The position numbers and the translations under genes are program-made. Positions 13,476-46,491 of a stretch of 64,000 nt of DNA are shown in pieces. The notes beneath the pieces were generated by a model. It was not told where the DNA came from and searched no databases. It saw nothing but the letters and a program-made list of their open reading frames with translations. Within the stretch, counting starts at the first letter, position 1. Each line of letters starts with the position of its first letter. This stretch comes from an uncultured Eubacteriales bacterium (GTDB lineage: Bacteria > Bacillota > Clostridia > Christensenellales > Aristaeellaceae): the NCBI GenBank assembly GCA_902800625.1, contig CADCFG010000004.1:52816-116815 (forward strand), read 5' to 3'.

Positions 13476-13504
13476 TAGACAAATAACCGCAAATGTATTA
13501 TAAT
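13476..13504 (+). promoter_or_regulatory. Candidate promoter for the giant ORF
   Basis: TAGACA (13476-13481), 17 nt, TATAAT (13499-13504) in an AT-rich block. Predicts a 5' leader of about 240 nt. Confidence 0.35.
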
Positions 13505-13531
13505 AATATTGGTATCGTGTATAGCTATACC

Positions 13532-13665
13532 CAGAATCAGGTCTGCATGTCGGCTGCTGGCCTGGAAGCGGGAAATGGGACGAAATAAAACAGAATCCGG
13601 TCTGAAAAATGTCTTAAAAGCAGACGCCGGTCCAAATTGCGTCACAAATAAGAGACTTAGGTCTG
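13532..13665 (+). promoter_or_regulatory. Four copies of a 14-nt motif, CAGA-NN-(C/T)-N-GGTC-TG, in the giant-gene leader
   Basis: CAGAATCAGGTCTG (13532-13545), CAGAATCCGGTCTG (13591-13604), CAGACGCCGGTCCA (13621-13634), GAGACTTAGGTCTG (13652-13665). Confidence 0.35.
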
Positions 13666-13748
13666 TATCGGCAAGATTGCGCGCTTGCGTGACGCAGGCT
13701 GTGTCGAAAAGCACGGCAAAAACTTCGACCAGGCAGTAGGAGGCAAAA

Positions 13749-16700
13749 ATGAGACATCCTACCAGAAATACGAATACATATGGAGCGCGTCCGCGTGGAG
13801 GCAGCCGCTTCAGCTTGGCCTATTTTGGCAGGCTGATGAGTTGTCTGCTTGCGTTGAGCCTCATATTGAATTCCTTTACATTTACGGTGGAGGACTTTGG
13901 CGTCGCCATCGCGCAAACCGCAGACACTGCAGAGTATGGCGCGGATGTCCTGGAAGAGGAAGAGAAGGCCGTCGAGGAGCTTCAGGATGTGGATCTTGGG
14001 CTGGAAGAAGGGAACGATCAGGAGACGGCTGACCAGGATGCCTACCTATTTAATGCGGGCTATGACAGCGAGTTCCTGTTCAGCAGGATCATGGATGACG
14101 CGAAGCTGCCCATCAAAAAGGTTAAGGATGTCGAGATGATCAGCGTCATGGGCAGCCTGGACGAGCAGGATCCCGATTCAAAGCAGGAAACCGGCGAGGC
14201 GCTGTATGTCGAGCCGATTCTGAACGACAAGAACGAGATTTCCGACTACAGCATCACCGCGCTGCGCTTCTTTGAGGAAGCGGGGTTGATGGTCTATACC
14301 GCCGACGATTACTATACCGTGCGCCTCTGGAGGCCGGATGACGCAGCCAAGGAGATGGAAAAGCGCGCCCAGCAGGCCCAGGCGCTGCCCGAGGAGACCG
14401 AAGAACCCGTGCCGGAAGCGACGGCCGAACCCGTCTATGAAATCGGCGCGGCCTGGCCGGAGCGACTGGGCACGGTGCTGGAAAGCGTTGGACTGCCCAT
14501 AAAACCGACCGAAGTCGAGAATGTGGCCGTGTTGGGCGATGGGGATGGAGAACCTGACCCGCTCACCGTGGAAGCTGTTGACGGGGACTATCTGATCTCC
14601 GTGACCCGTGATTTTGACGAGGCGCGGCTGGCCCTGTATCTGGGGGAGGAGGTCTGCGTCCTGACGCTGATCAATGGCATTGGCGCAGAACCGGTCGAGG
14701 AGACCGAGGTCGACGTTCCTGAGGAACCCGAAGCCGATCCCGTAGATGAAGCGGTGGAAGAGCCTGTCAAAGAGACTGAAATCGATCTGCCCACCGAAGA
14801 TGAAACCGAGACGACCGAAGAAATCGATGAAGTTGAGGAGCCGACGGAAGAGCTCACCGAGGAAACGGAAGTCGAGCTGATCGCCGAGCCGACCGCAGAG
14901 CCCACTGAGGAGCCGACCGTCGAACCTACCGAGGAGCCGACCGCAGAACCTACCGAGGAGCCGATGCTGGAGCCCACTGAGGAACCGACTGCCGAGCCGG
15001 CACCAGAGCCCACCGAGGAGCCCGAGGCTGATCTTGTCGAGGAACCCACCGAAGCGCCGACGGTTGAACCTACCGAGGAGCCGACGCCGGAGCCTACAGA
15101 AGAACCGACCGAAGTCGCTTATCCTGCGCAGCACTTTACCGGCAGCACGGTGTTCGTGCGCGTGGACGTGGACGCTCCCGAAGGCGCGTTCCCAGAAGGC
15201 GCGACCATGGCCGTCAAGCCCGTGTGGAACAGCGACACCATCGCTGACTTCACCGACGCTGTCTCCGCGGACAATATGGAGGTGGACCGCTGCCTCGTGG
15301 TGGACATCACCTTCTACGACGCCGACGGCAATGAAATCGAGCCGCTGGCGCCCGTGGCCGTGGAAATGAGCATGGCGGCGCGCATGAATGAGGAGCAGGA
15401 AGCCCTGGTGGCCCACATGGACGACACCGGCGCGGTGGAGCTGATGGAGCAGACCGAAGTGGCCGAAAGCACTGGCAGCCGCGTGGCCATGAGCGTGGAG
15501 ATCGGCACAGAACAGACCGAGGTCGAATATAAACAGACTGAAGTCGGTGATGCCGATGAAACCACGGTTGCCTTTGACGCCGACGGCTTCTCCATGTATG
15601 CGCTGATGCTCGCCCGCTATACGGTGGACTTTCACTGGGGTGACTATATATATAATATAGAAGGCGAGGGCGAAATCACCCTCTCGTCCCTTCTGGAAAA
15701 GCTCGGCGTGACGGAGATCACCTCCGCAGACGTGGCGAACGTCACTTTCTCCAATCCCGAATACATAGCAATCGAGCAGCTTGACTCTGACTGGCTGCTC
15801 CGCTCCCTTGCGCCCTTCAGCACTGAAGAGGCGCTGACGCTCACGCTCCAAAATGGCCAGAGTGTGGAGATCAAGGTCACGGATGAACAGCAGGAAGAGC
15901 CCGCACCCACCCCGGTTACGAACCTTGTCTACAACGGACAGCCGCAGGCGCTGGTGACAAACGTGGAAGGCGGAACATACCTCTATGCCCTTGTCGAGAA
16001 CGGCGAGACAGCGCCGGAGAACAATGTGAGCTGGAACACAACCGTTCCCTCTGCTACCGACGCCGGAACCTATTATGTCTGGTACAAAGCGGACGGCAGC
16101 GATGCTGCGGCGCAGTGCGTCACGGCAGCCATCGCGCGGATGCCCCTGACCATCACGGCCGACAGCGCCGAGAAGGCTTATGACGGTTCTCCCTTAACGA
16201 AAGATACCTACACATACACTAAACCGGCCGAAGGCGATACAATGCAATCCGTGACAATAAGCGGCAGCCAGGAACACATGGGCTCCAGCGATAATGTGCC
16301 TTCTGCGGCGGTCATTAATAACACCTCAAACGAAGATGTCACCGCAAACTATGACATCACCTATGTCAACGGCACCTTGACCGTCACATGGCCTGAGAAT
16401 ATGGTCGCGAAGGAACTCACAGCCTTCAACGGCAACCTTGCTACCTATACGATAACAGTCAACCCTGCCGGGGATGTTATGACTGGTGGACAAAACTATA
16501 TTGTGAAGGATACCTTCAGCAGGAATCAGTCCATCAACTACGGGTCGGTAACCGTATCTCCCGAGGAGAATGTCACCTACGATTTCAGCGAGCAAACCGG
16601 TACCTATACCATTCCTGACGGAGCCAAGGTTACCATCACCTATACTACCAGAGTAGCAGGACAGGTGGGCAAACCGGCAAACTTTTACAACACCGCCGTC

Positions 16701-19700
16701 GTCGGCAGTATGGGGGATTCGGGCTTCGTTCCCGGCCCGACGGCTACGGTAAATGAAACCAGGACCATCTCCCCGACCGGCACGGACATCTCCGGAACGG
16801 GCGGCGTGTACAGCATCGATTTGTTTGCTTATGCGGACGGCCATATGGAACGTGGTCTCAGCGGCGCCGAATTCCGCCTGCTCGATTCCAACATGCGCCC
16901 GATGCATTACCTTGCCGGGGAGAATGCGGGCAAGGAAATTAAGTTTACGACGGGAGAAGACGGAACCGTCACCATTAGGCTCAATCATGAAAGCGACGGT
17001 CTGGCAATTCAAAAGAATACCGTATATTTCCTTGAAATGGCTACCGCGCCTTATGAGGAGATAAACGGAGAAAACGTTTATTACCAGAAGGATGATACTT
17101 TTTACAGCTTCCTGATTACAGATGAGCCGAGCTATAAGTACGGCGACATCTACAGCTACTTCAACGGCGACGTGCTGAAGGTGCGTTGCTATCCCGAAGC
17201 TGAGGGCATCAACGTAACCAAGCGCTTTAGCGGCAACTATACCCTGACGGACGAGCAGAAAAATGCCATCACCTTTACCCTGCAGAAGGAGGCGCAGTAT
17301 ACCGCCAGCGGCTGGGTGGATGTGGAGAGCCATACCTATGCGGATTTCTCCTATGGTTCCATCAACTTCAACACCGGGCGCAAGGGCGGAACCGAACTGG
17401 AAGACTTTGCGACCTATCGGATCATCGAGGAGCATGCGCGTCCCGAGGCGCTTGCCGACACCATCGACGAGAACGTCTCCGTGACCGTTTCCTATCAGCA
17501 GGGCGGCAAGCGGGTGACGGAAAACAGCAACGAGTTTACCGTGGACCCGGATGAAAAACTCGCGTTCAGCTATGATTTCGCCTTCACCAACGAGTATGTG
17601 GATCACAAGCTGACCCTCATCAAGATTGACGAAAACACGGGCGCGCCTATTCCGGGCGCAATCTTCTCGGTTTACACAGCGGATAATACGGAGACAACTG
17701 TCGCAACCTACACCACCGGAAAGGACGGTTCGATTACGATCCGTCGGTCGGATGAAGGGGCGGGCTATGCCCCTGACACACTTTACTATGTTGTGGAAAG
17801 CAAAGCGCCCGAGGGGTACGTCCTTCCGGCCGATCCGGAGAAGATATACTTCTACTTCTCGGAAAACGGCGGCGGAGTTCCTGCCGGACTGCCCTCCGGC
17901 AAGACAGCCACAGACCTGACGACCTCCTATAACACCGTCACCCTGCCCAACAGCAGCGCAAGCGTCAACGTCCCCGTGACGGCGGTCTGGGGCGTCGGCA
18001 CGGAGAATATCAGCAAAGTGGTAGTCGGGCTGTATAAGTCTGTCGGTGGCGCGACAGCCGAAAAAGTGCTGGACAATAACAGCGAGGCTCTGACACTTGA
18101 ACTGACCAAAGAAAAATACTATGACACCACGACGTTTGTAAACCTCCCTGCCCAGGAGGATGGCAAGAATATCGTCTATTCCGTCGTGGTGAAGGGCGTC
18201 TTCGCCCCGGACGACGCGGACATCACCACGCAGTTTGCCCAAAGCGTCAGCGTCAGCGGCACCGGCTGGTATGTGGTGAAGAATGAACCCGCGGTCAGTG
18301 TCGTGGTTCAGAAGCAATGGTTTGAACAAGACGGTACAACACCGGTCTCTGATACATCTGGCAGGGCTGCTGTCACCTTTGACCTGTACCGCACGACGAC
18401 AGAGGCAGAAGGCAATTTCAATCGTGCTGAACTGGTCGCCTTTCTTGCGGATGCCGAGAAGGTGCGCACGGGGTTGACGCTTTCCAAGGAGAGTTGGAGT
18501 ACAACCATTGACTCCCTGCAGAGCAAAGACAGACAGGATAACACTTACTATTACTATGCTCTGGAGAATCCGATTCCGGACAACCAGGAGGATAGTTACC
18601 TTGTCGCGCCCGCCGTGGATTCTGCTCCGCGCACACTGACGATCAAAAACACCCAGACGCCGGTCACGGTCACGATTAAGGCCGGTGATTTGACAAAGAC
18701 TTACGGCGATGAGGATCCGAAATATCCGTTGACTGCGAGCGTTATGCAGGATGAAGCATCCGCAGTCATAACAGGCCCGGATGCCAGTGGTCATTACACC
18801 GCCACAGTGACGGACCCCCAGAGCGAGTCAAAAACCATCAAGTTCACGGTTTCCCGAGACGAAGGTGAGAACGTAGGCGCTTACACGATCACACCTACGG
18901 GCGAGGCCTCCCAGGCAGGATACAGAGTTCTGTTTGAGACTGGAAAGCTGACGATCAGCTCCGCAGAGGTCACCATCACCGCCGGCGCCTCCAAGGTCTA
19001 TGGCGAGGATGATCCTGCGCTCGTGACGGTGACGGGCCTTAAAAATAATGAAACTGCCGGATCCGGGGATAGCGATACCGTGAAATACACGGTCTCCCGC
19101 GAGGAGGGCGAGGATGTCGGCGATTATCCCATCACCCTGACCGGCGAAAGCGACCAGGGCAATTACAGGGTGACCTATGACAGCTCGAACGCGGTATTCA
19201 GAATCGGCCGAGCGCAGGCCACGGTGACCGCGAATGCGGCCTCCAAGGTATATGGCGAGGATGACCCGGAGCTTACCGCGACAGTTACCGGGCTTCAGCG
19301 TGGCGACGAAGCGTCCGTCCTGAACTATGAGCTGACCCGTGAGGCGGGCGAGAATGTCGGTACATACAGCATAACGTCCGCGGGTGAAGCGGAGCAGGGC
19401 AATTACACCGTGACCTATGCGCCCGCAGAGTTCACCATCACTCCCGCTGCCCTGACCGTTAAGGTTGTGAACACGGAGAAGACCTACGGAGATGAAGACC
19501 CCGAATGGGAAGTGGAAATCGACGGCCTGTACAGGGACGAAGAAGGCGGCACGCTTAATTCTGTGCTGGATGAAGCGACCGGCGTAAGGACCTATACCTA
19601 TACGCTGAGCGAAGGGGACGAAGCGGTCTCTCTGCTTACCTTCACGATCACTCGTACGGCGGGTGAAAGTGTCGGCAATTATCCCCTGACACCCACCGGA

Positions 19701-22700
19701 GCGGAAACACAGGGAAACTATACGCTTACATTTGAACCCGGCACGCTGAGCATTGAGCGGGCGGAGCTGTTTGTCACGGCCGATCATGTCGTGAAGGCGG
19801 TTGGCGTGGAAACGGATCCGCTGCTTACCGCGACGGTCACTGGCTGGAAAAACGGGGATGACCCGTTGGAGGACACCACGCTGTTTTCTACGGAAACCGA
19901 CGAGAACGGTACCGTCACCCGTACCTACAAGCGAGGAAGCGGCGCGGCTGAGGTGACGTTCCTTGTGATTTCAAGCGTCGGTGCGGACGGCACCGTAACC
20001 TGGACTTATAAACGTGGAGACACCGCTCTGCTCACCTTCACGCTCAAGCGCGATGCGAGCGAGGAGGAAGGCGAGTACCCGATCACGGTTTCGGGTGGAC
20101 AGAACCAATCTAACTACAGCGTTGAATATGAGCAGGGAAGCTTCGGGATCCTTTCGATCCTGGACGTGGATGTGAAGCAGCCGGTGATCGACTATGCCGA
20201 CACCGATGCCGCACCCTCCTATACCTATACTGCAAAGCTTGACCTGACCGGGACAGGCCTGGTCGAATATGAAAAGAACGGCTTCACGCGCGTTGACGGC
20301 GTTCCCACCCTTACCTTCACCCTGCCGGATGAGAATAAAGCGGATACCATGACGCTGAAGGTTCCGGGCGGCGCAAAGCTGACGGTGGAGCAGACGAGCA
20401 CAAACGACGACTATGATACCGCGCTCAGCCTTGACGGCAATCCTTACACAAATCCGAATAATGCGGCGCTTTGCATCCTTGAGCATGTGGATACCTATCA
20501 TGAAATGGCCTTTACCCACAGCCGTATCAGTTATCCCGTGGAGGCAAGAGTTTCCGAGACCCAGTCCGAGGAAGGCGCGAAGAAGCTGGAGGGCAGGAAG
20601 GGCGCCATGGGCATCCCGACGGGCGACGAGCTCACCCGGGCCATCGACGCGGATTTTGCTGATGACATGCATAGCAAGATCGGCTATGTGCTGCCCACGG
20701 ATAAGTACTACATGTATGACCATGCCTCGCTGTACACCGCGGCGGGGGAGGCTATCGAGGGCGCGTCCCATGTCTCGGCGATCAAGTATGACCGGGAGAA
20801 TGCCAAGTGGCAGTATAAGGTGGGGGAAGGCGACTTCGTTGATGCTCCCGAAAATGCCCAGCTGGTGCTGTTCTACCTGCCAAAGTTTGTCTGCAAGATC
20901 GGTACGGAAAAGTTCTATTCGCTGAGGGCGGCTGTGGATTATGTCGTCAACAACGCCGAAACAAACGGCACAACAGCGACCATCGAAATGCTGATCGGAG
21001 ATTATACCATCCGGTCTTCAAATGACGCGGTGACCATTCCCGAAGGGTATACCATTACCATCACCACGGCACAAACGGAATACGAGGGCGAGGGTACGGC
21101 GGTCATCAGCCGCAGCATGAACTATACGGCGGGGCACCTGTTCTACAATGACGGTAGACTGACCTTCGATAACATCATTCTCGACGGCAAGAACGTCCAG
21201 GCGACGGACGCGTTGGTACTCAACCGGGATGCAAACTCGGTGCTGACTGTCAATGCAGGCGCGACGATGCAAAATGCCAAGGGCGTCAACGGCGGCGCGA
21301 TCTACGTGAAAAACGGCACCGTGACCGTGAACGGCACCCTGACGAACAATGAGGCGACAAACGGTGGTGGCGCGGTGTATGTCAAGGCGGGTACGTTTAC
21401 GATAGGAGCATCCGGAAAGCTCAGCGGCAACTCAGCTATGACAGGCGGCGCGGTGTATGTAGATGACGGTACAGTCAACATTGTCGGCACCATCGGCGGC
21501 ACAGGAGCAGAAAGCAACACTGCCACCATCGGCGGCGCGGTGTACATCAACAAGGGCACGGTCAGCGTGACCGGGTCCGTGATTGGAAATACAGCTGAAA
21601 ACGGCGGTGCGGTCTATCAGGTCGGCGGTACGCTGACGGTTAACGGCAGCATGGCTCAGAACACCGCATCGGTCAACGGCGGCGCGGTATACCTGAGCAA
21701 CGGCACTTTGACCAACAATGGTACAATCGATGGAAACAGCGCAACCGGCAATGGCGGCGCGGTCTATCAGGTCGGCGGCACATTGTCCAATGAGGGTACC
21801 ATCAGCGGTAACAACGCATCCAACGGCGGCGGCATCTACCGTGTCGGCGGCACACTGACGGTCGGCGGCATACTCAGCGGCAACGAGGCAGACGAAGAAG
21901 GCGGCGCCATTCATTCTACAAACGGCACGCTGAACGTCAACGCGGCGGTCACCGGCAATCATGCGGCAACAGGCGGCGCAGTCTATGTCAGCGGCGCGAC
22001 CCTGAACATCAACGGCGGAAGCTTCTCCCAAAATACCGCCACTGCCAACGGCGGCGCGGTCTATGCGCTCAACAGCACCACCAGGATCGGCAGCGCCGAT
22101 GCGGAGGTGACAGTTGAAAACAACACTTCCGAGGGCAACGGCGGCGCGGTCTACATGGAAGGCGGCAGCGTGACCGTTGAGAATGCAAACAGCACTTTGA
22201 CCGGCAACAGCGCCATCAACGGCGGCGGCATCTACGCAACCAGCGGCGCGATCACCGTGGACAATGGCAGGCTGGAGAGCAACGAGGCCACTGCCAACGG
22301 CGGCGCGATCTATGCCGAAAGCGCTTCGGTGACGGTCAACGGCGGCGTGCTCGGCGGCACCGGCAAAGGGAATAAAGCAAACCAGGGCAACGGCGGCGCG
22401 ATCTATGCCGGCAGCGGCACCGTGACCGTAAGCGACGGTACGCTTTCCGGAAACAGCGCCGGCAGAGGCGAGAGCGAAGATACCACCCTTGGTCTGGGCG
22501 GTGCGATCTACGCAGGCACCGGCACGGTGAACTATACCGGCGGCGCCATCAACGGCGGCAACAGCGCGGTCAACGGCGCGGCGATCTTCGTCGGGTCGGG
22601 CATTGCCAATGTCTCCGCGTCCATCACCGGGAACACCGCAACGAACGGCGGCGCCATCGGCGTCGGCGGCACCTCGGCGCGCCTGAACTTCAAGGGTAGC

Positions 22701-33758: not shown

Positions 33759-33913
33759 CCCTACAGCCTGCGACGTTATAAAAGAGCGTTGCGGGCCGAC
33801 CCGCAGGCGGAGCGGCATGGCTGTTCCGCCCGCATCATAAGACAGTACGGGCAATGGGGGAGCATCAAACAGATGGTTCCCTTCTGTCCTGTTCCATGAT
33901 TGCCAAAAAACTG

Positions 33914-33942
33914 TTGCGATAAACGCGGTTTTGTGGTATCAT
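33914..33942 (+). promoter_or_regulatory. Possible internal promoter ahead of the pilin genes
   Basis: TTGCGA (33914-33919), 17 nt, TATCAT (33937-33942). Weak -10, and no terminator seen upstream of it. Confidence 0.3.
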
Positions 33943-34014
33943 GCAATAAGGGTTCTTATGCCCATTGAGCCTGAAAAAGGCTGAACAATCGTGCGAGAGG
34001 GAGGTGACGGGCCC

Positions 34015-34645: not shown

Positions 34646-34876
34646 ATGATGAAGAAAATCAAAGCCAAGTTACGCGGCAGGGCGGGGGAATCCATCGCTG
34701 AGACGCTGATCGCCACGCTGATCGCCGCGCTGGCGCTGGTGATGCTGGCGGGGGCCGTCGCTTCCGCCGCGCGGATCATCACCACCAGCCGGAAGGCGAT
34801 AGAGGAATATCAGTCAGAAGCCGGGAACATTGAGGGACAATGGCAGACGTTGATGAGCGACACCCTGAACCCGTAG
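34646..34876 (+). CDS. Very short (76 aa) prepilin-type protein
   Basis: MMKKIKAKLRGRAG/ESIAETLIATLIAALALVMLAG: class-III-like leader with Glu at +5. AGGAGG RBS. Confidence 0.55.
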   Translation: MMKKIKAKLRGRAGESIAETLIATLIAALALVMLAGAVASAARIITTSRKAIEEYQSEAGNIEGQWQTLMSDTLNP

Positions 34877-34923: not shown

Positions 34924-35523
34924 ATGAAAGCCAGAAAAAAACTGAATAGCCGCGCCGGCTTCACGCTGGCGGAGACGCTGCTGGCGGTGCTGATCCTGCT
35001 GCTGGTTTCCACGATCGTGGCCACGGGCATGCCCGTGGCGCGGACGGCTTATGAAAAGGTGGTGCTGACCAGCAACGCCGAGACGCTGCTCACCACGGCA
35101 GTCTCCGCCCTGCGCAACGAACTGGGCACGGCCTGGAAGGTGGAACAGCCGTCCAATAATCATGTGACATATTTCAGTGCATCTACCGGTACACGGGCAG
35201 AGTTGTATTTGGATGGAGAAAACAAAATCAAGATTTTAGATTATGCCGGGGCAACCAGCCTGGATGCTCTGCTGGGCACCAACCAGAACAAGGCCGCGAC
35301 CACGGCCCGCGACCTGGTGTTCCAGTCCGACATCGACCGGCTGGGCAAGCTGACACTGAAGGCCGGGAGCATCACGCTGGACAAGGCCACCGGGAAAGTG
35401 AGGATCAGCGGCATGAAGGTGTTCAGCGCCAGCAATGTGGAGCTGGCTTCGCTGGGTGATTCCTCGGATGATTCCTCGGATGATTCATTGGTAATTTCCG
35501 TGTTCTCCTGCGAAGGTGCCTGA
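34924..35523 (+). CDS. Type IV prepilin (199 aa), canonical G/FTLAE N-terminus
   Basis: MKARKKLNSRAG/FTLAETLLAVLILLLVSTIV. The C-terminus carries SSDDSSDDS. Confidence 0.8.
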   Translation: MKARKKLNSRAGFTLAETLLAVLILLLVSTIVATGMPVARTAYEKVVLTSNAETLLTTAVSALRNELGTAWKVEQPSNNHVTYFSASTGTRAELYLDGENKIKILDYAGATSLDALLGTNQNKAATTARDLVFQSDIDRLGKLTLKAGSITLDKATGKVRISGMKVFSASNVELASLGDSSDDSSDDSLVISVFSCEGA

Positions 35524-38160: not shown

Positions 38161-39909
38161 TTGGCAATCATAGGCAATAACGGGAAAAAGCCGGCGGGCA
38201 AGGGCTACCTGCGCCTGGGCGACCTGCTGATCTCGGCGGGTCTGATCACCGAGGAACAGCTGGAGGAAGGCCTGCGGCTGCAAAAGGGCAGCGGCAAGCG
38301 CCTGGGCACGGTGCTGCAGGAAAACGGCATCATCACCGAGACCGACCTGATCGAGGCGCTGCAGATGCAGCTGGGCATCGAGTTCATCGACCTGAGCAAG
38401 GTGAATATCCCCACGGAGCTCGTTCAGATGGTGCCCAAGAACATCGCCAAGCAGTATCAAGTGGTGCCGGTGCGCCTGAACCGGGACGAGCTGTACATCG
38501 CCATGAGCGACCCGCTGAACTTCTATGCCATCGAGGAAGTCCGCAAGGCCGCCCGGCGCAAGATCGTGCCCATGGTGGCCATGTCCGCCGCCGTGGAGCG
38601 TGCCATCCAGGTGCTCTACGGCAATGAGGGCGCGGCCAAGGCCATCGAGGAGATGAAGCGCGAGGCTGCCGCCTCCGGCGAGACCACCGTCGCGCTGGAC
38701 AGCGCTTTCACCGCCAACCAGGTGGGCGAGGAGAACGTGAACCAGGCCCCGGCCATCCGGCTGGTGAACGCCATCATCGAGCGCGCCGTCACCGAGCGTG
38801 CCAGCGACATCCACATGGAGCCGAGGGAGACGGAGTTCTCCGTGCGTATGCGCATTGACGGCCTGCTGCGCGACATCCTCACCGTGCCGCGGGAGCTGCA
38901 GGCCGCCGTGATCAGCCGCGTGAAGGTCATGTCCGGCCTGGACATCACCGAGCGCCGCGTGCCCCAGGACGGCCGCTTCAACGTGAAGGTTCGCGACAAG
39001 GACATCGACCTGCGTATTTCCACGCTGCCCACCGTCTACGGTGAAAAGATCGTAGCCCGACTGCTGGACAAGTCCGGCCGGAAGCTGAGCCGCGATTCCA
39101 TCGGCCTGACCGGCGACGATTTGGAGAAGTACCTGCGCCTGGTGAAGATCAAGAACGGCGTGATACTGATCGTCGGCCCCACCGGTTCCGGTAAGTCCAC
39201 CACCATGTATACCATGATCGGCGATATGAACACCCGCGACGTGAACCTGGTTACCCTGGAGGACCCGGTGGAGTACAATATCGATGGCGTCAACCAGGTG
39301 CAGATCAACGAGAAGGTGGGCATGACGTTTGCCAGCGGCCTGCGCTCCATACTGCGCCAGGACCCGGACATCATCGCCGTGGGCGAGATCCGCGATGGCG
39401 AGACGGCGGAGATCGCCATGCGCTCGGCCATCACCGGCCACGTGGTGCTGTCCACCCTGCACGCCAACGACGCGCTGGGCACGGTGGAGCGCCTGATCGA
39501 CATGGGCGTGGAGCCCTATCTGGTAGCCAGTGCCCTGAAGGGCGTGTTCAGCCAGAGGCTGGTGCGCCGCATCTGCCCCAACTGCCGCCAGGCCTATGAA
39601 CCCACTGAGGAGGAACAGGCTGAGTTGGGCCTGGAGTATATGCCCGGGCGCACGTTCTACCGCGGCACGGGCTGCCCCGAGTGCTTCGACACCGGCTATC
39701 GCGGCCGTACCGCTGTGTTTGAGATATTCCCCTTGTCCGTGCAGGTGCGTCGCCTGATCTCCAAGGGCGCCGGGCGCGACGCCATCGAGGCCATGCTGAA
39801 GGCCCCGGGCAGCGGCTTCGTCTCTCTGCGGGAGAACGCCATCCGCCTGGTGGAGAACGGCACCACCACCGCCAGCGAGCTGCTGCGCGTGATCTATGAG
39901 GATATTTAG
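38161..39909 (+). CDS. pilB: Type IV pilus assembly (extension) ATPase PilB/GspE family with an MshEN-type N-terminus
   Basis: 582 aa from a TTG start. N-terminal tandem RLGxxLIxxGLI....L...L..Q motifs, Walker A GPTGSGKSTT, CPNC...CPEC tetracysteine. Confidence 0.9.
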   Translation: MAIIGNNGKKPAGKGYLRLGDLLISAGLITEEQLEEGLRLQKGSGKRLGTVLQENGIITETDLIEALQMQLGIEFIDLSKVNIPTELVQMVPKNIAKQYQVVPVRLNRDELYIAMSDPLNFYAIEEVRKAARRKIVPMVAMSAAVERAIQVLYGNEGAAKAIEEMKREAAASGETTVALDSAFTANQVGEENVNQAPAIRLVNAIIERAVTERASDIHMEPRETEFSVRMRIDGLLRDILTVPRELQAAVISRVKVMSGLDITERRVPQDGRFNVKVRDKDIDLRISTLPTVYGEKIVARLLDKSGRKLSRDSIGLTGDDLEKYLRLVKIKNGVILIVGPTGSGKSTTMYTMIGDMNTRDVNLVTLEDPVEYNIDGVNQVQINEKVGMTFASGLRSILRQDPDIIAVGEIRDGETAEIAMRSAITGHVVLSTLHANDALGTVERLIDMGVEPYLVASALKGVFSQRLVRRICPNCRQAYEPTEEEQAELGLEYMPGRTFYRGTGCPECFDTGYRGRTAVFEIFPLSVQVRRLISKGAGRDAIEAMLKAPGSGFVSLRENAIRLVENGTTTASELLRVIYEDI

Positions 39910-40022: not shown

Positions 40023-41075
40023 ATGACAATGACCATTGAACAGCTTGTCGCCAAGGCGCGAGAAGACCACGCTTCCGATATTCACCTGATCTGCGGCTTG
40101 CCGCCCAAGTACCGCAAGGACGGCCAGCTGGAGAACATGACGGACACCCCGCTGACCGCCAGCGATTGCTCGGCCTATGCCCGCGAGCTCGCGGGTACGC
40201 CGGAGAATTACGACATCTATCTGCAGACCGGCGAGTTGGACGCGGCAGAGACCTACGCCGGCAACCGCTGCCGTATCCATATCTTCCGCCAGCAGGGCCT
40301 GCCCTCCGTGGCGCTGCGCCTGCTGTCGGACCGCATCCCCAAGCTGGACACCCTGGGCCTGCCCCCGGCGGCGCTGAAGCTGCCGGACCTGCACAAGGGC
40401 ATCGTGCTGGTCACTGGCGAGACCGGCTCCGGTAAGTCCACCACGCTGGCGGCGCTGCTGGATTACATCAACCACACCCGCAAGGCCCACATCGTCACCC
40501 TGGAGGACCCGGTGGAGTACATCTATACCCCCGACAAGTGTGCCATCAACCAGCGCGAGGTGGGCAAGGACACCCTGTCCTTCGCGGCGGGGCTGCGCGC
40601 CAGCCTGCGCGAGGACCCGAACGTGATACTGATCGGCGAAATGCGCGACCGGGAGACCATCGAAACCGCCATCACCGCCGCCGAGACCGGCCATCTGGTG
40701 TTCGGCACGCTGCACACCGGCAGCGCCTCCGACGCCGTGGACCGCATCGTACAGGTGTTCCCCGAGGGCATGCAGGTGCAGATCCGCCTGCAGCTGTCCA
40801 TGTGCCTGCAGGCCGTGCTGACCCAGCAGCTGATCCCCAAGAAGATGGGCGGGCGCGCGCTGGCCTGCGAGATGATGGTGGTCACCGACGCCATCCGCAA
40901 CCTGATCCGCAACGGCAACACCCCGCAGATCGCCAACGCCATCGCCACCAGCGCGGCCATTGGCGGCCAGACCATGGACCAGGCCCTGGTGCGCCTGGTG
41001 CGCTCGGGCCAGATTACCCGCGACATGGCGCTGACCTTCGCCCACGAGCCGGATTATGTGAAGAAGAACGCATAG
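40023..41075 (+). CDS. pilT: Type IV pilus retraction ATPase PilT
   Basis: 350 aa. ASDIHL..., Walker A GETGSGKSTT, AHIVTLEDPVEY, GEMRD, LVFGTLHT. Confidence 0.9.
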   Translation: MTMTIEQLVAKAREDHASDIHLICGLPPKYRKDGQLENMTDTPLTASDCSAYARELAGTPENYDIYLQTGELDAAETYAGNRCRIHIFRQQGLPSVALRLLSDRIPKLDTLGLPPAALKLPDLHKGIVLVTGETGSGKSTTLAALLDYINHTRKAHIVTLEDPVEYIYTPDKCAINQREVGKDTLSFAAGLRASLREDPNVILIGEMRDRETIETAITAAETGHLVFGTLHTGSASDAVDRIVQVFPEGMQVQIRLQLSMCLQAVLTQQLIPKKMGGRALACEMMVVTDAIRNLIRNGNTPQIANAIATSAAIGGQTMDQALVRLVRSGQITRDMALTFAHEPDYVKKNA

Positions 41076-41109: not shown

Positions 41110-42330
41110 ATGCCCCAATACAAGTATACCGCCGTCACCAAGGACGGCAAGAAGGTCTCCGGTCTGATCGAAGCCTTCAACGAGCTGGACGCCGCCACCA
41201 AGGTCAAGGAGTCCTATTCCATCGTGCTGCAGCTGGGCGAGGTACAGGAAAAGAGCAAGGCCGCGGCCTTCCTCAGCATGGACCTGGGCGGCAACAAGCT
41301 GGACGACAAGGCCTTCATGCTGATGTGCCGACAGTTCTCCGTTATCCTCAAGGCAGGCGTGCCCATCCGCCGTACGGTTGAGCTGATCGCCGACAAGATG
41401 ACGGACAAGACGCTCAAGCGCATCCTGGAACAGGTGGTCGAGGACGTGGAGGGCGGCCGCTCCCTTGCGGCCAGCTTCGAGGAGCGGGGCGGGAAGATCC
41501 TGCCCGTCACCTTCCTGGAGACCGTGCGCGCTGGCGAGGAGGCCGGCAGCCTGGATTCCGCCTTTGAGTCCGTCAGCGAGCACTATGCCAAGCAGAGCAA
41601 GATGAAGGGCAAGGTGCGCGGCGCGCTGATCTATCCGGCCTTCGTGCTGGTGGTGGCCATCGTGGTCGTCATCGTGCTGATGGTGAAGGTGGTGCCCACG
41701 TTCACCGCCATCTTCGACAGCTACGATGCCGAGCTGCCCATTCCCACCCAGATTCTGATCGCCATGTCCAACTTCTTCAGCCACAACTGGATGATCCTGG
41801 CGGCGGTGGCGGCGGCCATCGTGCTGGGCTTCAAGCTCTATGGCAACACAGAGGCAGGGCGCATCAACCTGGCCAAGCTGCAATTAAGGCTGCCCGTTCT
41901 GGGCAACATCGCGGTGCTGAACGCCGCCAGCCAGTTTGCCAACACCATGGCCATGATGATGGGCGCGGGCCTGCCGATGACCAAGGCCGTTACCATCACC
42001 AGCCGCGTGCTGGACAACTATTTCATCAGCCAGCAGGTGGGCAAGATCACTGCCCGCCTGGAGGAGGGCTACACCCTGGGCCACAGCATGCGGGAGGCCG
42101 ACTGCCTGCCGGACATCCTGGTGGACATGACCGCCGTGGGCGAGGAGAGCGGCGAGCTGGAGCAGACGCTGGGCATGACCGCCGAATATTACGATACCGA
42201 ATTGGAGCAGGCCACCGCCGCGGCGCTGGCCAAGCTGGAGCCTACGGTGTTGGTATTCCTGGCGGGCTTCGCCGGATTCATCGTCATCGCCATCTATATG
42301 GCCATGTTCGGCATGTACGCCGCGATGTGA
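41110..42330 (+). CDS. pilC: Type IV pilus platform protein PilC/GspF
   Basis: 406 aa, MPQYKYTAVTKDGKKVSGLIEA... Duplicated GspF domains, 3 TM segments. Confidence 0.9.
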   Translation: MPQYKYTAVTKDGKKVSGLIEAFNELDAATKVKESYSIVLQLGEVQEKSKAAAFLSMDLGGNKLDDKAFMLMCRQFSVILKAGVPIRRTVELIADKMTDKTLKRILEQVVEDVEGGRSLAASFEERGGKILPVTFLETVRAGEEAGSLDSAFESVSEHYAKQSKMKGKVRGALIYPAFVLVVAIVVVIVLMVKVVPTFTAIFDSYDAELPIPTQILIAMSNFFSHNWMILAAVAAAIVLGFKLYGNTEAGRINLAKLQLRLPVLGNIAVLNAASQFANTMAMMMGAGLPMTKAVTITSRVLDNYFISQQVGKITARLEEGYTLGHSMREADCLPDILVDMTAVGEESGELEQTLGMTAEYYDTELEQATAAALAKLEPTVLVFLAGFAGFIVIAIYMAMFGMYAAM

Positions 42331-42341
42331 TCGCCGGGGTG

Positions 42342-43043
42342 ATGAACGCTATGAACAAGTTGCGCGCGCGCCGGGGCGGGATTCCCCGGGTGATGGCGGT
42401 GCTGCTGGCGCTGATCGCCGTGATGCTGGTGATCATCGCCCTGCCCAGCCTCCAGAGCTTTTCGGAGCAGAGCCAGAGGATCGCCTGCGAACAGGCGCTG
42501 GCCTCCGCGCGGGACGGCCTGATCATCGAGTATTTCAACAGCTTCCAGGCCGGCTCCACCCAGGATGCCATGAACACCCTGGACGTGGTGATGCCCGCCC
42601 GGCCCAACATCTGCCCCTCCGGCGGCACGGTGTATCTGGTGCGAGGGGCCAACGGCATCTTCGAGCCCGTCTGCGGCCTGCATGCGCCGGATGGAAAGCA
42701 GCGCTGCCGGCTGAACGCCAGCCGGGCCAGGGAGCTGCTGGAAAGCAGTCTCACCAAGGCGAAGAAGAAGAGTACTACGGCGCCGGAGAGCGTGAAGATC
42801 GCGCTGAATGGCCAGATGCTGGAATGCGACTTGGTGGACAAAGCCGTGCGCCTGCGCCGGGGTACCGCCACTTCCAACGATTATGAGGGCGTCGTGGCCT
42901 TCTACGGAATCGCGGGGGAGGGCGAATTTCCCGTCAAGGGCGTGAAGGCGGGCGAGCTTTACTACTTCATCTATGCCGACGAGGACCACTGCGCCGTCTG
43001 GCGTGCGGACGACGGCTGGACGGGCGACGCCTACCAATATTGA
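42342..43043 (+). CDS. Membrane-anchored Cys-rich protein of unknown function; pilin-like leader without Glu5
   Basis: MNAMNKLRARRGG/IPRVMAVLLALIAVMLVIIAL, then a soluble domain with 5 Cys (RIAC, NICPSGG, PVCGLH, QRC, EC). Start uncertain: GTG 42327, ATG 42342 or ATG 42351. Confidence 0.55.
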   Translation: MNAMNKLRARRGGIPRVMAVLLALIAVMLVIIALPSLQSFSEQSQRIACEQALASARDGLIIEYFNSFQAGSTQDAMNTLDVVMPARPNICPSGGTVYLVRGANGIFEPVCGLHAPDGKQRCRLNASRARELLESSLTKAKKKSTTAPESVKIALNGQMLECDLVDKAVRLRRGTATSNDYEGVVAFYGIAGEGEFPVKGVKAGELYYFIYADEDHCAVWRADDGWTGDAYQY

Positions 43044-43130: not shown

Positions 43131-43173
43131 GTATGGGTGGCGTAATAGCGCCTCAGGAAGGCCGAAGGAGGGG

Positions 43174-43974
43174 ATGGATGTGTCCATCTACGAATATCGG
43201 CCAGTGCTGTTTTTCTTCGTGATCGTCGCGGCCTGCTTTGGCGCGGTGATGGGTTCCTTCCTGAATTGTGCGGCCTTCCGCATCGTTCGCGGGGAGAGCT
43301 TCCTCAGGGGTCACAGCCGCTGTCCCGCCTGCAGTCACGAACTCACGGCCCTGGAGCTGATCCCGGTGCTCAGCTGGGTGTTCCAGCGGGGCAAATGCCG
43401 CGCCTGCGGGGCGAAGGTGTCCGTCCGCTATCCGCTGACGGAAATGGGCTTTGCGCTGGTGACGGTATTGTGCCTGTTGCGGTTCGACCTGACGGTGCTG
43501 TGCCTTCGGAACTATGTGTTCCTGTGCTGCCTGTTCCTTTTGACGCTGACGGACATGGAGGACATGACCATCCCCGACGGCTGCCATATCGCGGCGGTGG
43601 TGGCGTGGCTGGCGGCCCTGCCGTTCCTGTTCACGGGATGGGGGGACGTGCTGCGCTCCGTGCTGTCGGCGGTGATCTTCGGCGGGGGACTGCTGGGAAT
43701 CTCGCTGGTCATGGACAAGGTGCTGGGCCGTGACTCCCTGGGCGGCGGCGACATCAAGCTGTTTGCCGTGGTGGGGCTGTACCTGGGCATTGTGGGCACG
43801 CTGTTTTCGCTGCTGGCAGCCTGCGTGCTGGGCCTTTTGATGAACGCGGCCATGAAGCGGCGGGACGGCGAGCGGGCGTTTCCGTTCGGGCCGGCCATCG
43901 CGCTGTCCGCGGCGCTGATGCTGCTGTACGGCGAGCCGCTGGTGAAGTGGTATCAGGGATTGCTGAATATATAG
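43174..43974 (+). CDS. pilD: Prepilin peptidase (A24 family) PilD
   Basis: 266 aa. CPACSHEL...IPVLSW...GKCRACG zinc-finger-like N-terminus, multiple TM segments, GGGDIKL active-site motif. Confidence 0.9.
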   Translation: MDVSIYEYRPVLFFFVIVAACFGAVMGSFLNCAAFRIVRGESFLRGHSRCPACSHELTALELIPVLSWVFQRGKCRACGAKVSVRYPLTEMGFALVTVLCLLRFDLTVLCLRNYVFLCCLFLLTLTDMEDMTIPDGCHIAAVVAWLAALPFLFTGWGDVLRSVLSAVIFGGGLLGISLVMDKVLGRDSLGGGDIKLFAVVGLYLGIVGTLFSLLAACVLGLLMNAAMKRRDGERAFPFGPAIALSAALMLLYGEPLVKWYQGLLNI

Positions 43975-43985
43975 AGGGTATTTGA

Positions 43986-45005
43986 ATGGCAAAGACGATA
44001 ATGGGTGTCGATATCGGGCACGACCAGCTGAAGCTGGCGCTGGTGCGGGGCCGGCAGGTCATCAAGACCGCCTCCGCGCCCATGCCGGAGAACCTGCTCA
44101 AGGAAGGCCGAATCGCCAGCCGTGAGAGCATGGGCGAGCTGATCAAGACCACCATGAAGTCCGGCGGGATCCGCGCGGGCCGTGCCGCTGTGGCTCTGCC
44201 CAACCACGTGGTCTTTGTCAAGAACGTGGAAATGCCCCTGATGAGCATCGAGCAGCTGGAGTACAACCTGCCGTTTGAGTTCAATGACTACATCACCGGC
44301 GAGCTGAAGGACTATGTGTTCGACTACGCCGTGGTCTCCGACCCCAATGCCGCTTCCGGCGAAGGGGAGGGCGGCGAGGCCGTAGCGCCCTCGCTGGAGC
44401 TGATGGCGGTGGGCACGCTGCGCGCCGTGCTGGAGGACTGCAAGGAGTCGCTGCGCAAGTCGGGCCAGAAGATGGTGCTCTCGGCCCCGGCCATCAGCGC
44501 TTACATATCGCTGATCCGCGCGCTGGGTGACAAGCTGTCCCTGATGACGGACGAGTACTGCGTACTGGATCTGGGCTTTGAGTCCATCCGCATGTATATG
44601 TTCAAGGGCGACAGGCACGTGGCCACTCGTGTGCTGGAGATGGGCATGTCCAACCTGGACAGCGTCCTGGCCGACCTCTACGGCGTGGACGTACACCTGG
44701 CGCACACCTACCTGATGAGCAACTTCGAAAACTGCCAGCAGCGCGAGGAGTGCATGAACGCCTATTCCAACATTGCGGTGGAACTGATGCGGGCGTTGAA
44801 CTTCTATCGCTTCTCCAACCCGGACAGCACGCTGGAGCATATGTGGCTCTGCGGCGGCGGCGCGGTGATCCAGCCCCTGGCCGAAACCATCGGCGATATG
44901 CTGAACATCCAGCTGCACGAGGCCTCCGAGCTGGTGCCCGGCGGCGAGAACGTGCCGGAGTGCAACACCTATATCCAGGCCATCGGCATTGCGCTGGGGC
45001 TGTAA
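43986..45005 (+). CDS. pilM: Type IV pilus assembly protein PilM (actin-like ATPase fold)
   Basis: 339 aa. MAKTIMGVDIGHDQLKLALV... and a ...LCGGGA... motif. Confidence 0.85.
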   Translation: MAKTIMGVDIGHDQLKLALVRGRQVIKTASAPMPENLLKEGRIASRESMGELIKTTMKSGGIRAGRAAVALPNHVVFVKNVEMPLMSIEQLEYNLPFEFNDYITGELKDYVFDYAVVSDPNAASGEGEGGEAVAPSLELMAVGTLRAVLEDCKESLRKSGQKMVLSAPAISAYISLIRALGDKLSLMTDEYCVLDLGFESIRMYMFKGDRHVATRVLEMGMSNLDSVLADLYGVDVHLAHTYLMSNFENCQQREECMNAYSNIAVELMRALNFYRFSNPDSTLEHMWLCGGGAVIQPLAETIGDMLNIQLHEASELVPGGENVPECNTYIQAIGIALGL

Positions 45006-45070
45006 TTCAGGGCGGCCTGCGAAGCGGGTTGGAAGATGTGTGAGTTTAAATCTCACTGGAGGTAAGAATA

Positions 45071-45853
45071 TTGGCTGCTAAGGGCAGACCGGCGCGCGGC
45101 AAGGCCCCCAAGAAGGGCATTGGCGGGCACATGCCGGTGAAGCGGTCGATCAACCTGGTGTTGGTCGATGAAAACAAAATAAACCCCGTCAAGGCGGCGC
45201 TGGGCATCATCCTGATCGTCGCGCTGGCGTTTGCGTTCGGCAAATTCCTGGTGGCGGATCGCCTCGTGGCCATGTCCCAGGCCTCAGGCCGGGTCAACCA
45301 GCTGCAAAAGACGCTGGACGACACGCTGGCGGCCATCGAGGGCTTCGGCGAGGTGGAGGCCACCTATGCCCACTATACCTATGACGACATGAACGCGGAG
45401 GAGACGGGCCTGGTGGGTCGCGCCGAAGTGGTGAACCTGGTCAGCACCATCATCAAGGAGCAGGACAACCTGTTCGACATGAAGGCCTATGCCCCGCGGC
45501 TGAACAACCTGGTGGAGGAGTTGTCCTCCGGCGGCAATCCCTATCTGTCGCTGAGTGAGTTCCGCCAGAAGGTTTCCGCCCTGGGCTCGGAGATCGTGGC
45601 CTATCGCGAGCAGGTGCTCTCCTGGAACGTGCAGGGCAACGTGCTGCAGGTGGAGCTGACCGGCAAGACGCTGGAAAACCTGAACAAGCTGGCCCGCAAG
45701 GTGGAGGAGAGCCCCCTGGTGGACACCTGCAGCCTGACCACCGCCAACAAGGACTCCAAGGCCCGCGCGCTGACTTCTCTGGAATCCGGCGTGCGCGGCA
45801 AGTTCGTGATCTATCTGGTTCAGCCCGTGGAAGAGGAGGTGGCGGAGCAATGA
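45071..45853 (+). CDS. pilN: PilN-like bitopic pilus assembly protein
   Basis: 260 aa from TTG (GGAGG RBS). Single TM (AALGIILIVALAFAFGKFLV) followed by a coiled coil. Position after pilM. Assignment is by context and topology. Confidence 0.6.
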   Translation: MAAKGRPARGKAPKKGIGGHMPVKRSINLVLVDENKINPVKAALGIILIVALAFAFGKFLVADRLVAMSQASGRVNQLQKTLDDTLAAIEGFGEVEATYAHYTYDDMNAEETGLVGRAEVVNLVSTIIKEQDNLFDMKAYAPRLNNLVEELSSGGNPYLSLSEFRQKVSALGSEIVAYREQVLSWNVQGNVLQVELTGKTLENLNKLARKVEESPLVDTCSLTTANKDSKARALTSLESGVRGKFVIYLVQPVEEEVAEQ

Positions 45854-46437
45854 AGCTGTTCAGCCGAGACTTTTCCACCACTGAAAAGGTGCTGATCGTG
45901 ATCCTGGCGCTGATCCTGCTGGCGCTGGTCTACTATCAATTCGTGGACAAGACAGTGCGCAGCACCATCCAGAACGCCCAGTCCGAGGCCCAGATGCTGG
46001 AGACGGAGATCGACGCCGCCCAGATGCGAGCCGCGCGCCTGCGGTCGCTGAAAAACTCCATGGACGAGATGGAAGCCCAGGGCAAGCTGTCCTGGATGGC
46101 CAGCTACAACAACAGCAAGCCGGAGGTGCGCTTTTTGAACGACCTGCTGGCCGACACGCTGAGCTACTCCATCGACTTCGCCGACGTCACCCGCACCGGC
46201 AACCAGATCCGCCGCAGCTTCAAGCTGAGGTACCAGACCGGCGGCTTCCGCAAGGCGAGGGAGATCGTCGAGGACCTGCTCAAGAGCGAGAACCGCTGCC
46301 TGATCAGCGACGTGAAATGCACCATCGAGACCTCCGGCACCACCACCGTGGAGGCCAACGCCACCTTCTACGAGACCATGGTGGGCGGCGTGGCCGACGC
46401 TGGCCTGCCGACCGATTCCGCCGCGGTGAACAACTGA
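45850..46437 (+). CDS. pilO: PilO-like bitopic pilus assembly protein
   Basis: 195 aa. ATGA overlap with the previous gene. TM (VLIVILALILLALVYY), coiled coil, then a globular C-terminus. Assignment is by context and topology. Confidence 0.6.
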   Translation: MKLFSRDFSTTEKVLIVILALILLALVYYQFVDKTVRSTIQNAQSEAQMLETEIDAAQMRAARLRSLKNSMDEMEAQGKLSWMASYNNSKPEVRFLNDLLADTLSYSIDFADVTRTGNQIRRSFKLRYQTGGFRKAREIVEDLLKSENRCLISDVKCTIETSGTTTVEANATFYETMVGGVADAGLPTDSAAVNN

Positions 46438-46454
46438 CGGACGGCACAGAGACG

Positions 46455-46491
46455 AACCGCCATTCCTCCAAACGGGGGATGGCGGTTTTTT
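46455..46491 (+). terminator. Rho-independent terminator closing the pil locus
   Basis: AACCGCCAT-loop-ATGGCGGTT followed by TTTTTT. Confidence 0.7.

Follow-up and report, generated by a model that had tools for sequence, protein, structure and literature searches.

The window analyzed here is a 64,000-nucleotide (nt) stretch of contig CADCFG010000004.1 from an uncultured Eubacteriales bacterium. It carries a gene for a giant adhesin-like protein of 6,669 amino acids (aa), followed on the same strand by a cassette of four genes for pilin-like proteins (p207, p76, p199, and p841) and by the motor genes of a type IV pilus. Giant and cassette are paired in many other gut Firmicutes as well, for which reason the pilus is probably a carrier or an exporter of the giant adhesin, and we consider it likely that the giant and the pilin cassette form one functional unit. 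As to how they would work together, we favor, tentatively and by analogy with the PilC/PilY1 adhesins of other pili, a display at the pilus tip, where the tip complex would hold the giant through its C-terminal module.

Conservation of the giant gene and the pilin cassette

From an alignment of 15 homologues of p841, we collected 75 loci with 10-kb flanks, one genome per species, mostly metagenome-assembled genomes (MAGs) from the ruminant gut, belonging to Lachnospiraceae, Butyrivibrio, Oscillospiraceae, Ruminococcaceae, Acutalibacteraceae, Christensenellales, Mogibacterium, Erysipelotrichaceae, and, in one case, Eggerthellaceae. A co-directional open reading frame (ORF) of at least 1,000 aa lies directly upstream or downstream of the cassette in 34 of the 75 loci, and the pilin itself is 1,300 to 3,046 aa long in a further 14. 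Ten loci with both flanks readable have neither a giant ORF nor a giant pilin, and 17 are partly informative or uninformative. Most of the 34 giant ORFs run off the 10-kb flank at 2,300 to 3,300 aa. In most of these loci the giant ORF is upstream of the cassette, with a typical run-off at 2,300-2,800 aa, and it is downstream in L027, L042, L046, L053, L057, and L063. The adjacent giants are homologous to that of the window (BLAST E values down to 0), most of them sharing its C-terminal region in collinear alignment, and the gap between the giant stop codon and the p207 start codon is −4 to 135 nt in most relatives, compared to 256 nt in the window. The analysis shows which genes and domains the pairing comprises and that its synteny is conserved, whichever of the two parts comes first. 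Giant genes are rare, roughly one gene in a thousand, so that chance adjacency in 34 of the 75 loci is not credible.

A gene-neighborhood check had been set beforehand for the original prediction, which regarded the giant and the whole pilus machine as one functional unit. Because homologous giants adjoin the cassette in dozens of distantly related genomes, we reject the possibility that the adjacency is unique to this genome, and in this respect the prediction passes its comparative test. What has to be amended is the partner. About half of the giant-bearing loci have none of the genes from PilB to PilO in their 10-kb flanks, and in other loci the cassette stands directly before the genes for p238 (a membrane protein), PilD, and PilM, or between those for PilC and p238. 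The constant partner of the giant is the p207-p76-p199-p841 cassette, not the motor or the 33-kb locus as a whole, and co-transcription of the two parts in the window is uncertain. Some related cassettes are flanked by recombinase or insertion sequence (IS) genes (L080, L093, L099).

The giant gene (20,010 nt, 13749..33758, + strand) encodes a protein of 704 kDa with an isoelectric point of 4.4, which agrees with the anchorless protein of about 0.7 MDa with a signal-like N-terminus described originally. Its Pfam matches are a PT repeat, seven MBG_2 domains, SpaA, Chlam_PMP/Beta_helix, DUF7601, and a C-terminal SpaA, so that the layout runs from a Sec-type signal through an acidic PT linker, the MBG_2 domains, and SpaA/DUF7601 Ig-like domains to beta-helix modules. 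There are five such modules, each opening with a CKI motif (aa 2381, 3339, 4509, 5178, and 5989). The only hydrophobic segment detected by hydropathy, aa 21-48, belongs to the predicted Sec signal peptide (13749..13913, + strand), which has a basic n-region and a likely AIA↓Q cleavage site after aa 55, as judged by sequence inspection and hydropathy. We rejected the giant as a disguised pilin or lipoprotein, because its N-terminus has neither a G↓FxxxE motif nor a proper lipobox.

Regular-expression and hydropathy scans of the giant revealed no LPXTG motif, transmembrane (TM) segment, or basic tail, and the protein has no S-layer homology (SLH) anchor. Likewise, no LPXTG/TM anchor is present in 23 aligned orthologue C-termini, and the Gram_pos_anchor domain is found in 0 of 55 homologues. 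Sortase anchoring was rejected, given that the C-terminus lacks an LPXTG motif, a hydrophobic segment, and a basic tail. A remaining way to hold the protein without the pilus would be an N-terminal signal anchor, with aa 21-48 left uncleaved, the acidic PT linker spanning the wall, and the pilus genes uninvolved in retention. The sole hydrophobic segment is indeed N-terminal, a long acidic PT repeat is found at aa ~350-470, and the AIA↓Q cleavage is a prediction from sequence reading. Nevertheless, around 300 residues of folded-looking sequence separate the hydrophobic segment from the PT linker, the orthologues have ordinary Sec-type N-termini with small-residue cleavage motifs, and the conserved synteny would go unexplained, which makes such an anchor very unlikely.

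A conserved part of the giant lies at the other end. Residues ~5985-6669 (~680 aa; 31701..33755, + strand) align collinearly with most orthologue C-termini and constitute what we call the terminal module. It consists of the last short beta-helix, a strongly conserved cap motif (RQDIY..GSIWVWA..HY..FA..AFRNA..D..T.CGGDYLTGQ..IYWTGGFD), and two CnaB/SpaA isopeptide-type domains, whose PDB profile matches are pilus subunits, collagen adhesins, and the CnaB2 domain of FbaB. The terminal module is a candidate carrier or docking region. The "mini" adhesins P0254, P0260, and P0246 (442-755 aa) were rejected as proof that the module works alone; they are probably 3′ remnants of disrupted giants, since they have no signal peptides and sit among recombinase or IS genes.

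Canonical prepilin signals are present in three of the four cassette proteins, namely p76 (G↓ESIAE), p199 (G↓FTLAE), and p841 (G↓FTMAE), so that the four prepilin-type genes announced originally are reduced to three canonical ones and a pilin-like protein. The latter, p207 (34015..34638, + strand), has the non-canonical N-terminus KLRSxRG↓ASITFALLLFLVCA, in which Glu5 is absent and the sequence RG↓ASITFALL is conserved. Its AlphaFold model (confidence score pLDDT 78) comprises a 53-residue N-terminal alpha1 helix followed by an eight-stranded beta-sheet, a predicted layout that is pilin-like. The p207 family is large and unannotated (3,020 representatives at 50% identity), with no consistent Pfam or NCBIfam match in 26 of its members and no PDB sequence or fold match for p207. 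Membership of p207 in T2SSK (GspK), PilX_N, or ComGG was rejected for want of sequence or fold support, its sole similarities to proteins of the GspK/PilX/ComGG type being the absence of Glu5 and a long helix plus sheet. GspK-type tip pilins also lack Glu5.

The other three proteins differ widely in size. p76 (34646..34876, + strand) is a very short canonical prepilin (GRAG↓ESIAE) with a weak GspI/XpsI-like match; it would mature to about 62 residues, barely beyond the alpha1 helix, and its homologues in relatives have 95-118 aa. p199 (34924..35523, + strand; SRAG↓FTLAE) has an N_methyl match and weak ComGF/ComGD-like matches. p841 (35583..38108, + strand; NRRG↓FTMAE, N_methyl at 26.5 bits) is modeled (pLDDT 75) with an alpha1 helix at aa 12-65, Ig-like domains, and a GLUG beta-helix at aa ~480-800. 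The GLUG module, already noticed in the original prediction, is confirmed by a Pfam match just above the cut-off and by the predicted beta-helix, which matches the GLUG domain of IgA1 protease (3n6z and 7uvl; E values of 1e-6 and 2e-5). This combination of pilin alpha1 helix, Ig-like domains, and GLUG-matching beta-helix makes p841 a modular pilin in the sense of PMC8179133. No Pfam or NCBIfam GspH-K or PilVWX model scores above its cut-off in the cassette. The four proteins are best read as minor pilins, since relatives carry a separate, highly conserved small pilin beside the motor genes (mature length 115-135 aa, N-terminus KKGFTLAELLIVVAIIAVLVAIAIPVFTSQLEKSREATD, KKGFTLAELLIVVAIIAVLVAIAIP... 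family), for instance at L006 ~21319, L008 ~21124, L016 ~10440, and L039 ~18910. This small protein is probably their major pilin.

The p841-type pilin of more distant loci is a giant in its own right, with a canonical prepilin N-terminus. The 2,991-aa pilin of Butyrivibrio sp. XPD2002, for example, combines an N_methyl/p841-type N-terminus with GLUG and a C-terminal SpaA pair resembling that of the giant. Giant pilins and separate giants are largely mutually exclusive, both being found in L017 only. This "in cis or in trans" pattern of fusion and exclusivity points to an adhesin that acts on the pilus. Giant pilins of this kind, with canonical N-termini and about 2,600-3,050 aa, are encoded at L061 9827-18964, L076 8282-17260, and L073 5503-13353; their hosts are Lachnoclostridium sp. 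Marseille-P6806 and Butyrivibrio sp. XPD2002, both cultured, and a Lachnospiraceae MAG.

Proposed display at the pilus tip and its alternatives

We propose that the giant and the cassette are a conserved adhesion module of rumen and gut Firmicutes, beside a retractile, type IVa-like pilus motor that would serve it. The four cassette proteins would be minor pilins forming an initiation or tip complex, and the giant would be a Sec-exported, non-pilin passenger, docking on this complex via its conserved C-terminal module, as PilC/PilY1 of diderms does on minor pilins of the PilIJK type. The polymerizing major pilin, presumably encoded elsewhere in the genome, would drive both the complex and its cargo across the peptidoglycan, and the pilus complex would keep the anchorless adhesin on the cell. 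Retraction by PilT could then pull the cell onto the target of the adhesin, e.g. plant fiber or another cell. In this scheme, we infer the physical docking, the tip location, the export role, and the ligand.

The same genes could instead serve pilus-assisted export, as a Gram-positive analogue of a type II secretion system (T2SS), in which a short filament would drive the Sec-exported giant through the peptidoglycan, to be released or otherwise retained. Secretion of BsaC in Clostridium perfringens provides a clostridial precedent (PMC11580942), and the giant genes of Omnitrophota adjoin T2SS-like loci (10.1101/2023.11.21.568195). The lack of a major pilin gene in the window would suit a short pseudopilus, and the giant is anchorless. 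On the other hand, relatives do have a major pilin, the adhesin-type beta-helix of p841 implies a filament reaching outside, and the fusion of giant-adhesin parts to a pilin in some lineages favors display over release. Moreover, PilT accompanies the motor in nearly every locus (25 PilT vs 26 PilB), and we know of no characterized T2SS that needs PilT. We therefore regard export without display as unlikely.

Strains of the same species differ in the giant gene and in part of the cassette. Compared to the window, same-species contigs encode PilB and PilC with 100% identity, PilT, PilD, PilM, PilN, and PilO with ~99%, p238 with 97-98%, p207 with 98%, p76 with 97%, p199 with 82%, and p841 with 91.5%. 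At the position of the giant, they have a different allele of 6,226 or 6,252 aa, whose C-terminus is ~31% identical over the CnaB pair only, and nucleotide homology to the window resumes at 33813, just past the giant stop codon (L002 1-5639 and L003 1-5638 vs 28161-33758). This difference looks like the allelic replacement of a 19-20-kb gene. p841 contains a hypervariable patch (aa 361-440; 36663-36902) that is 48-60% identical between strains, the pilins being otherwise 90-100% identical, and which falls in a low-confidence loop region of the model. Because the giant and part of the cassette diverge while the motor stays near-identical, they appear to be exposed, diversifying components.

Such a pattern would also be expected if the giant merely occupied a hypervariable "adhesin slot" next to a physically independent pilus, the two being perhaps surface-exposed, co-regulated, e.g. 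by cyclic di-GMP (c-di-GMP), exchanged together by recombination, and devoted to long- and short-range attachment without contact. In addition to the allele swap beside a motor 99-100% identical and a p207 98% identical, this possibility is favored by a dip in guanine-plus-cytosine (GC) content across the giant gene, by mobile-element genes flanking some cassettes, by a hairpin and a promoter-like site between the two parts, by the 10 loci that have the cassette but no giant ORF, and by the many giants with a terminal module but no cassette downstream. However, the adjacency is kept across Firmicutes orders and in one Eggerthellaceae MAG, the genes always sharing a strand with very short gaps between them, whichever of the two parts comes first and even where the motor is elsewhere, and independent adhesins would leave the missing anchor unexplained. 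Mere co-location is, in our opinion, somewhat unlikely.

Several observations weigh against display of the giant at the tip by its terminal module. In a reverse search, from the terminal module alone, the cassette directly followed the giant in 6 of 13 metagenome loci and in 3 of 5 loci reached by protein matches. These positives speak for the pairing, but about half of the sampled giants do not have the cassette there, the negatives including contig ends, an IS insertion, and broken genes. In the window itself, a stable hairpin and a promoter-like site stand between the giant gene and the cassette. Pfam detected no beta-propeller domain of the PilC/PilY1 type in either half of the giant. As this defining propeller is absent, we rejected the giant as a member of the PilY1 family; our claim is that it works like PilY1, not that it is one. 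No PilY1-like conserved terminal peptide is apparent either, since the tails at the extreme C-terminus vary, the last strand motif is missing from some orthologues, and about 28 codons are lacking in a sister species; a family-wide C-terminal docking peptide was rejected on account of this variability. A very sequence-specific interface between p207 and the giant is hard to reconcile with a p207 that is 98% identical between strains whose giant alleles have been swapped. Finally, no major pilin gene is present in the 64-kb window, where p76 and p199 are the only small canonical pilins and the conserved pilin of relatives has no homologue.

Two of these points can be qualified. The two ~31%-identical giant alleles of one species share a similar extreme C-terminal tail (ITVSTQRTTIEE vs IVISAQRATMEE), a hint that points the opposite way, toward a specific interface. 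The tail is the part lost in the sister species (L005, ~8230-8268), whose giant lacks the last ~28 codons and the stop codon seen in L002 and reads into former intergenic sequence, as the result of a true deletion or of a misassembly of the MAG. As to the major pilin, the closest species, L005, also has no small pilin at this place, a terminator and a MatE gene following pilO, and the gene may be located elsewhere in this genome. Display on the tip or stalk of the pilus, in spite of these difficulties, remains the reading that we favor.

Motor genes, transcription signals, and surroundings

The gene order on the + strand is giant, p207, p76, p199, p841, PilB, PilT, PilC, p238, PilD, PilM, PilN-like, PilO-like, and terminator. 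All ORFs of this 33-kb run were found where the original prediction had placed them, and independent metagenome gene calls from the same species also put the whole region on the + strand. The description of this set as a complete pilus machine was too strong, since the window has no major pilin gene and relatives carry one. Pfam models identify PilB, PilT, PilC, PilD, and PilM, whereas the other two assignments are weaker: the PilO-like protein (45850..46437, + strand) has only a weak T2SSM match (26.8 bits, just under the cut-off of 27.8), and the PilN-like protein (45071..45853, + strand) matches no family and was recognized by its position, single TM segment, and synteny.

The extension ATPase PilB (38161..39909, + strand) matches T2SSE with 431.7 bits and TIGR02538 with 574 bits, under the equivalog cut-off of 676. 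Its N-terminus carries an MshEN c-di-GMP-binding motif (aa 17-70), as originally noted, which is supported by NF053729 (64 bits vs a cut-off of 38) and Pfam MshEN (E = 1.2e-19). Residues 17-40 (RLGDLLISAGLITEEQLEEGLRLQ), followed by a second near-perfect copy, fit the 24-residue motif RLGxx(L/V/I)(L/V/I)xxG(L/V/I)(L/V/I)xxxxLxxxLxxQ, so that PilB would be a c-di-GMP receptor by motif. The retraction ATPase PilT (40023..41075, + strand) matches TIGR01420 (pilT_fam) with 423 bits vs a cut-off of 319. The platform protein PilC (41110..42330, + strand) has two T2SSF matches above the cut-off, the prepilin peptidase PilD (43174..43974, + strand) has A24_N_bact and Peptidase_A24, and PilM (43986..45005, + strand) has PilM_2, likewise above their cut-offs.

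The membrane protein p238 (238 aa; 42327..43043, + strand) is conserved between PilC and PilD in all relatives. It was previously described as Cys-rich, and it does contain 6 Cys; we add that its N-terminus is degenerate pilin-like, with no cleavage motif and no Glu5, which suggests an unannotated, machine-associated pseudo-pilin. The N-terminal region is 31% identical over 71 aa to a small pilin of L024, in the alpha1 segment. A secretin was found neither among the scanned ORFs nor in the gene calls around the locus, in agreement with the original prediction. We rejected the locus as a T2SS, since it has no secretin and the pseudopilin (GspG-K) models give sub-threshold matches only.

Transcription signals are present at both ends of the run and within it. 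The promoter-like site proposed upstream of the giant gene (TAGACA-17-TATAAT, 13476..13504, + strand) has 11 of 12 consensus matches and sits in the divergent region between rpsB (12438-13163, − strand) and the giant gene. The intrinsic terminator at the other end (46455..46491, + strand) is clear on reading of the sequence, with a T-run after a 9-bp outer stem (AACCGCCAT/ATGGCGGTT). In the 256-nt gap between the giant gene and p207, no terminator had been recognized, and there is indeed no hairpin with a T-run; the gap does, however, contain two GC-rich hairpins directly after the giant stop codon (33790..33831, + strand, by folding) and then a promoter-like site in front of the cassette (33914..33942, + strand; TTGCGA-17-TATCAT, with TG upstream). 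The segment 33759-33860 would form an unusually stable RNA (−50.1 kcal/mol, z = −3.86) with no U-tract, possibly an attenuator or a 3′-end stabilizer. With these hairpins and this promoter-like site in the gap, a single 33-kb transcript is uncertain in the window. In L005, a different, equally strong hairpin stands at the same place. Rfam gave no match at the gathering score in the whole window and nothing credible in permissive scans of 13200-13800 and 33700-34100; a riboswitch or other RNA control of the giant or the pilus part was rejected on this basis.

The window has a GC content of ~60%, the locus is chromosomal, and identical proteins were found only in MAGs or metagenome contigs labeled Clostridia or Clostridiales, which fits a rumen-type Clostridia bacterium as the source. 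GC content is 0.55-0.60 over the giant and first pilin genes (12001-36000) vs 0.62-0.68 in the motor genes and flanks, a dip that could result from amino-acid bias or horizontal origin. Directly upstream of the giant gene, on the − strand, are rpsB, tsf, an HD-GYP gene, and pyrH. The window encodes two HD-GYP-type (HD_5) proteins, which are putative c-di-GMP phosphodiesterases (3105-4796 and 10201-11430, both − strand); one of them has a seven-transmembrane (7TM) sensor domain, and the gene for the other interrupts the rpsB-tsf-pyrH housekeeping cluster that adjoins the giant gene on its upstream side. Taken together, the HD-GYP proteins and the MshEN motif of PilB hint at a c-di-GMP control of the locus. 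Also nearby are a glycoside hydrolase of family GH113 and two Big_2 Ig-like surface proteins (5867-6820, + strand; 49209-50927, − strand; 55685-57559, + strand), which are consistent with a plant-fiber-associated lifestyle and a rich cell-surface repertoire.

Comparison with known systems

How very large adhesins of Gram-positive bacteria pass the thick wall and are retained without a sortase signal is poorly understood, and this locus is a concrete and widespread candidate answer. Should our model be correct, monoderms would have their first PilY1-like system, the "carrier plus effector" logic of PilY1 and minor pilins would extend to them, and the retention of anchorless giant adhesins on Gram-positive cells would be explained. 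The known size range of type IV pilins would grow about three-fold. The giant is a likely determinant of attachment to fiber or cells in rumen Clostridia, variable between strains, and thus relevant to colonization and niche partitioning.

The original prediction knew of no characterized system of this composition, which is a fair statement, even if there are close conceptual precedents (PMC13533445, PMC8179133, PMC11580942, 10.1101/2023.11.21.568195). Full-text literature searches returned neither GLUG pilins nor, for Firmicutes, any account of pilin genes linked to a giant adhesin that is not itself a pilin.

Of the two associations in the literature that come nearest, one is that of BsaC of C. 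perfringens, a 70-kDa Sec-exported protein whose passage across the Gram-positive wall depends on a clostridial pilus set comprising PilA3, PilB2, PilC1, PilD, and PilMNO, the peptidoglycan having been argued to block folded proteins larger than ~25 kDa (PMC11580942). BsaC differs from the giant in its size, in being encoded in a separate operon (sipW-bsaABC) that is not beside pilin genes, and in having no beta-helix or CnaB domain; no conserved synteny has been reported for it. In Omnitrophota, which provide the other, giant ORFs are conserved with GspE, GspF, and small class III signal proteins, and adhesion roles have been proposed (10.1101/2023.11.21.568195). These bacteria, however, are diderms with a GspD secretin and a different ecology (predation), and their giants, up to ten times larger, have many TM regions and SecA-like domains and no domain content in common with ours.

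Two other systems resemble parts of the locus. Sortase-anchored CnaB/SpaA adhesins and pili share the two C-terminal domains of CnaB/SpaA type, whereas the giant and its aligned orthologues have no LPXTG motif, TM segment, or basic tail, and no sortase gene was noted in the window. In the type IVb pili with CofB-CofJ and TcpB-TcpF, a minor pilin at the tip serves as adaptor for a secreted protein that is not a pilin and whose gene belongs to the same locus (PMC8179133), but the cargo is small and soluble, the pili are those of enteric diderms, and there is no sequence or domain relationship.

Also comparable are the modular pilins PilB (vWA) and PilC (lectin) of Streptococcus sanguinis, monoderm pilus subunits that bear a bulky adhesive module and are thought to be at the tip (PMC8179133). 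p841 fits this description and, with 841 aa, is near the top of the reported sizes, the largest modular pilin of that survey having 860 aa (PMC8179133), whereas its relatives here reach 3,046 aa. S. sanguinis has no separate giant non-pilin partner. The concept of a carrier module plus an effector module for modular pilins and PilY1 was formulated by Raynaud et al. (PMC8179133).

The best likeness is that with PilC/PilY1 and its minor pilins (FimU-PilVWX in Pseudomonas, PilHIJK in Neisseria). In both cases, a large adhesin that is exported by Sec and is not a pilin, conserved in its C-terminal part and variable in its N-terminal "effector", goes together with about four minor pilins, one of which lacks Glu5, in a retractile system with PilT, and is often encoded apart from the motor; the linkage of the giant to the cassette rather than to the motor has its counterpart in diderm type IVa pili, where minor pilins and pilY1 form operons of their own. 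The C-terminus of PilC/PilY1 in Neisseria and Acinetobacter adds a beta-strand (~10 residues) to a PilK-type minor pilin, which keeps the protein at the tip (PMC13533445). The giant, about six times larger than PilY1, shows no clearly conserved terminal strand of ~10 residues and no beta-propeller, its conserved part being the beta-helix cap and two CnaB domains. Moreover, its host is a monoderm with no secretin, whose minor pilins match no GspH-K/PilVWX model above the cut-off. Firmicutes of the rumen and gut may possess, though this is less certain than the tip display itself, an undescribed class of pilus-borne megadalton adhesins of up to at least 6,669 aa, which would be exported by Sec and captured by a four-pilin tip complex via a beta-helix-cap and CnaB carrier unrelated to PilY1, or fused to the pilin (~3,000 aa) in some lineages, the pilus acting as wall-crossing device, anchor, and winch. 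Type IV pili that work with an adhesin or cargo other than a pilin are known from other bacteria; the variant seen here, in which Firmicutes encode such an adhesin of giant size beside pilin genes, appears to be new.

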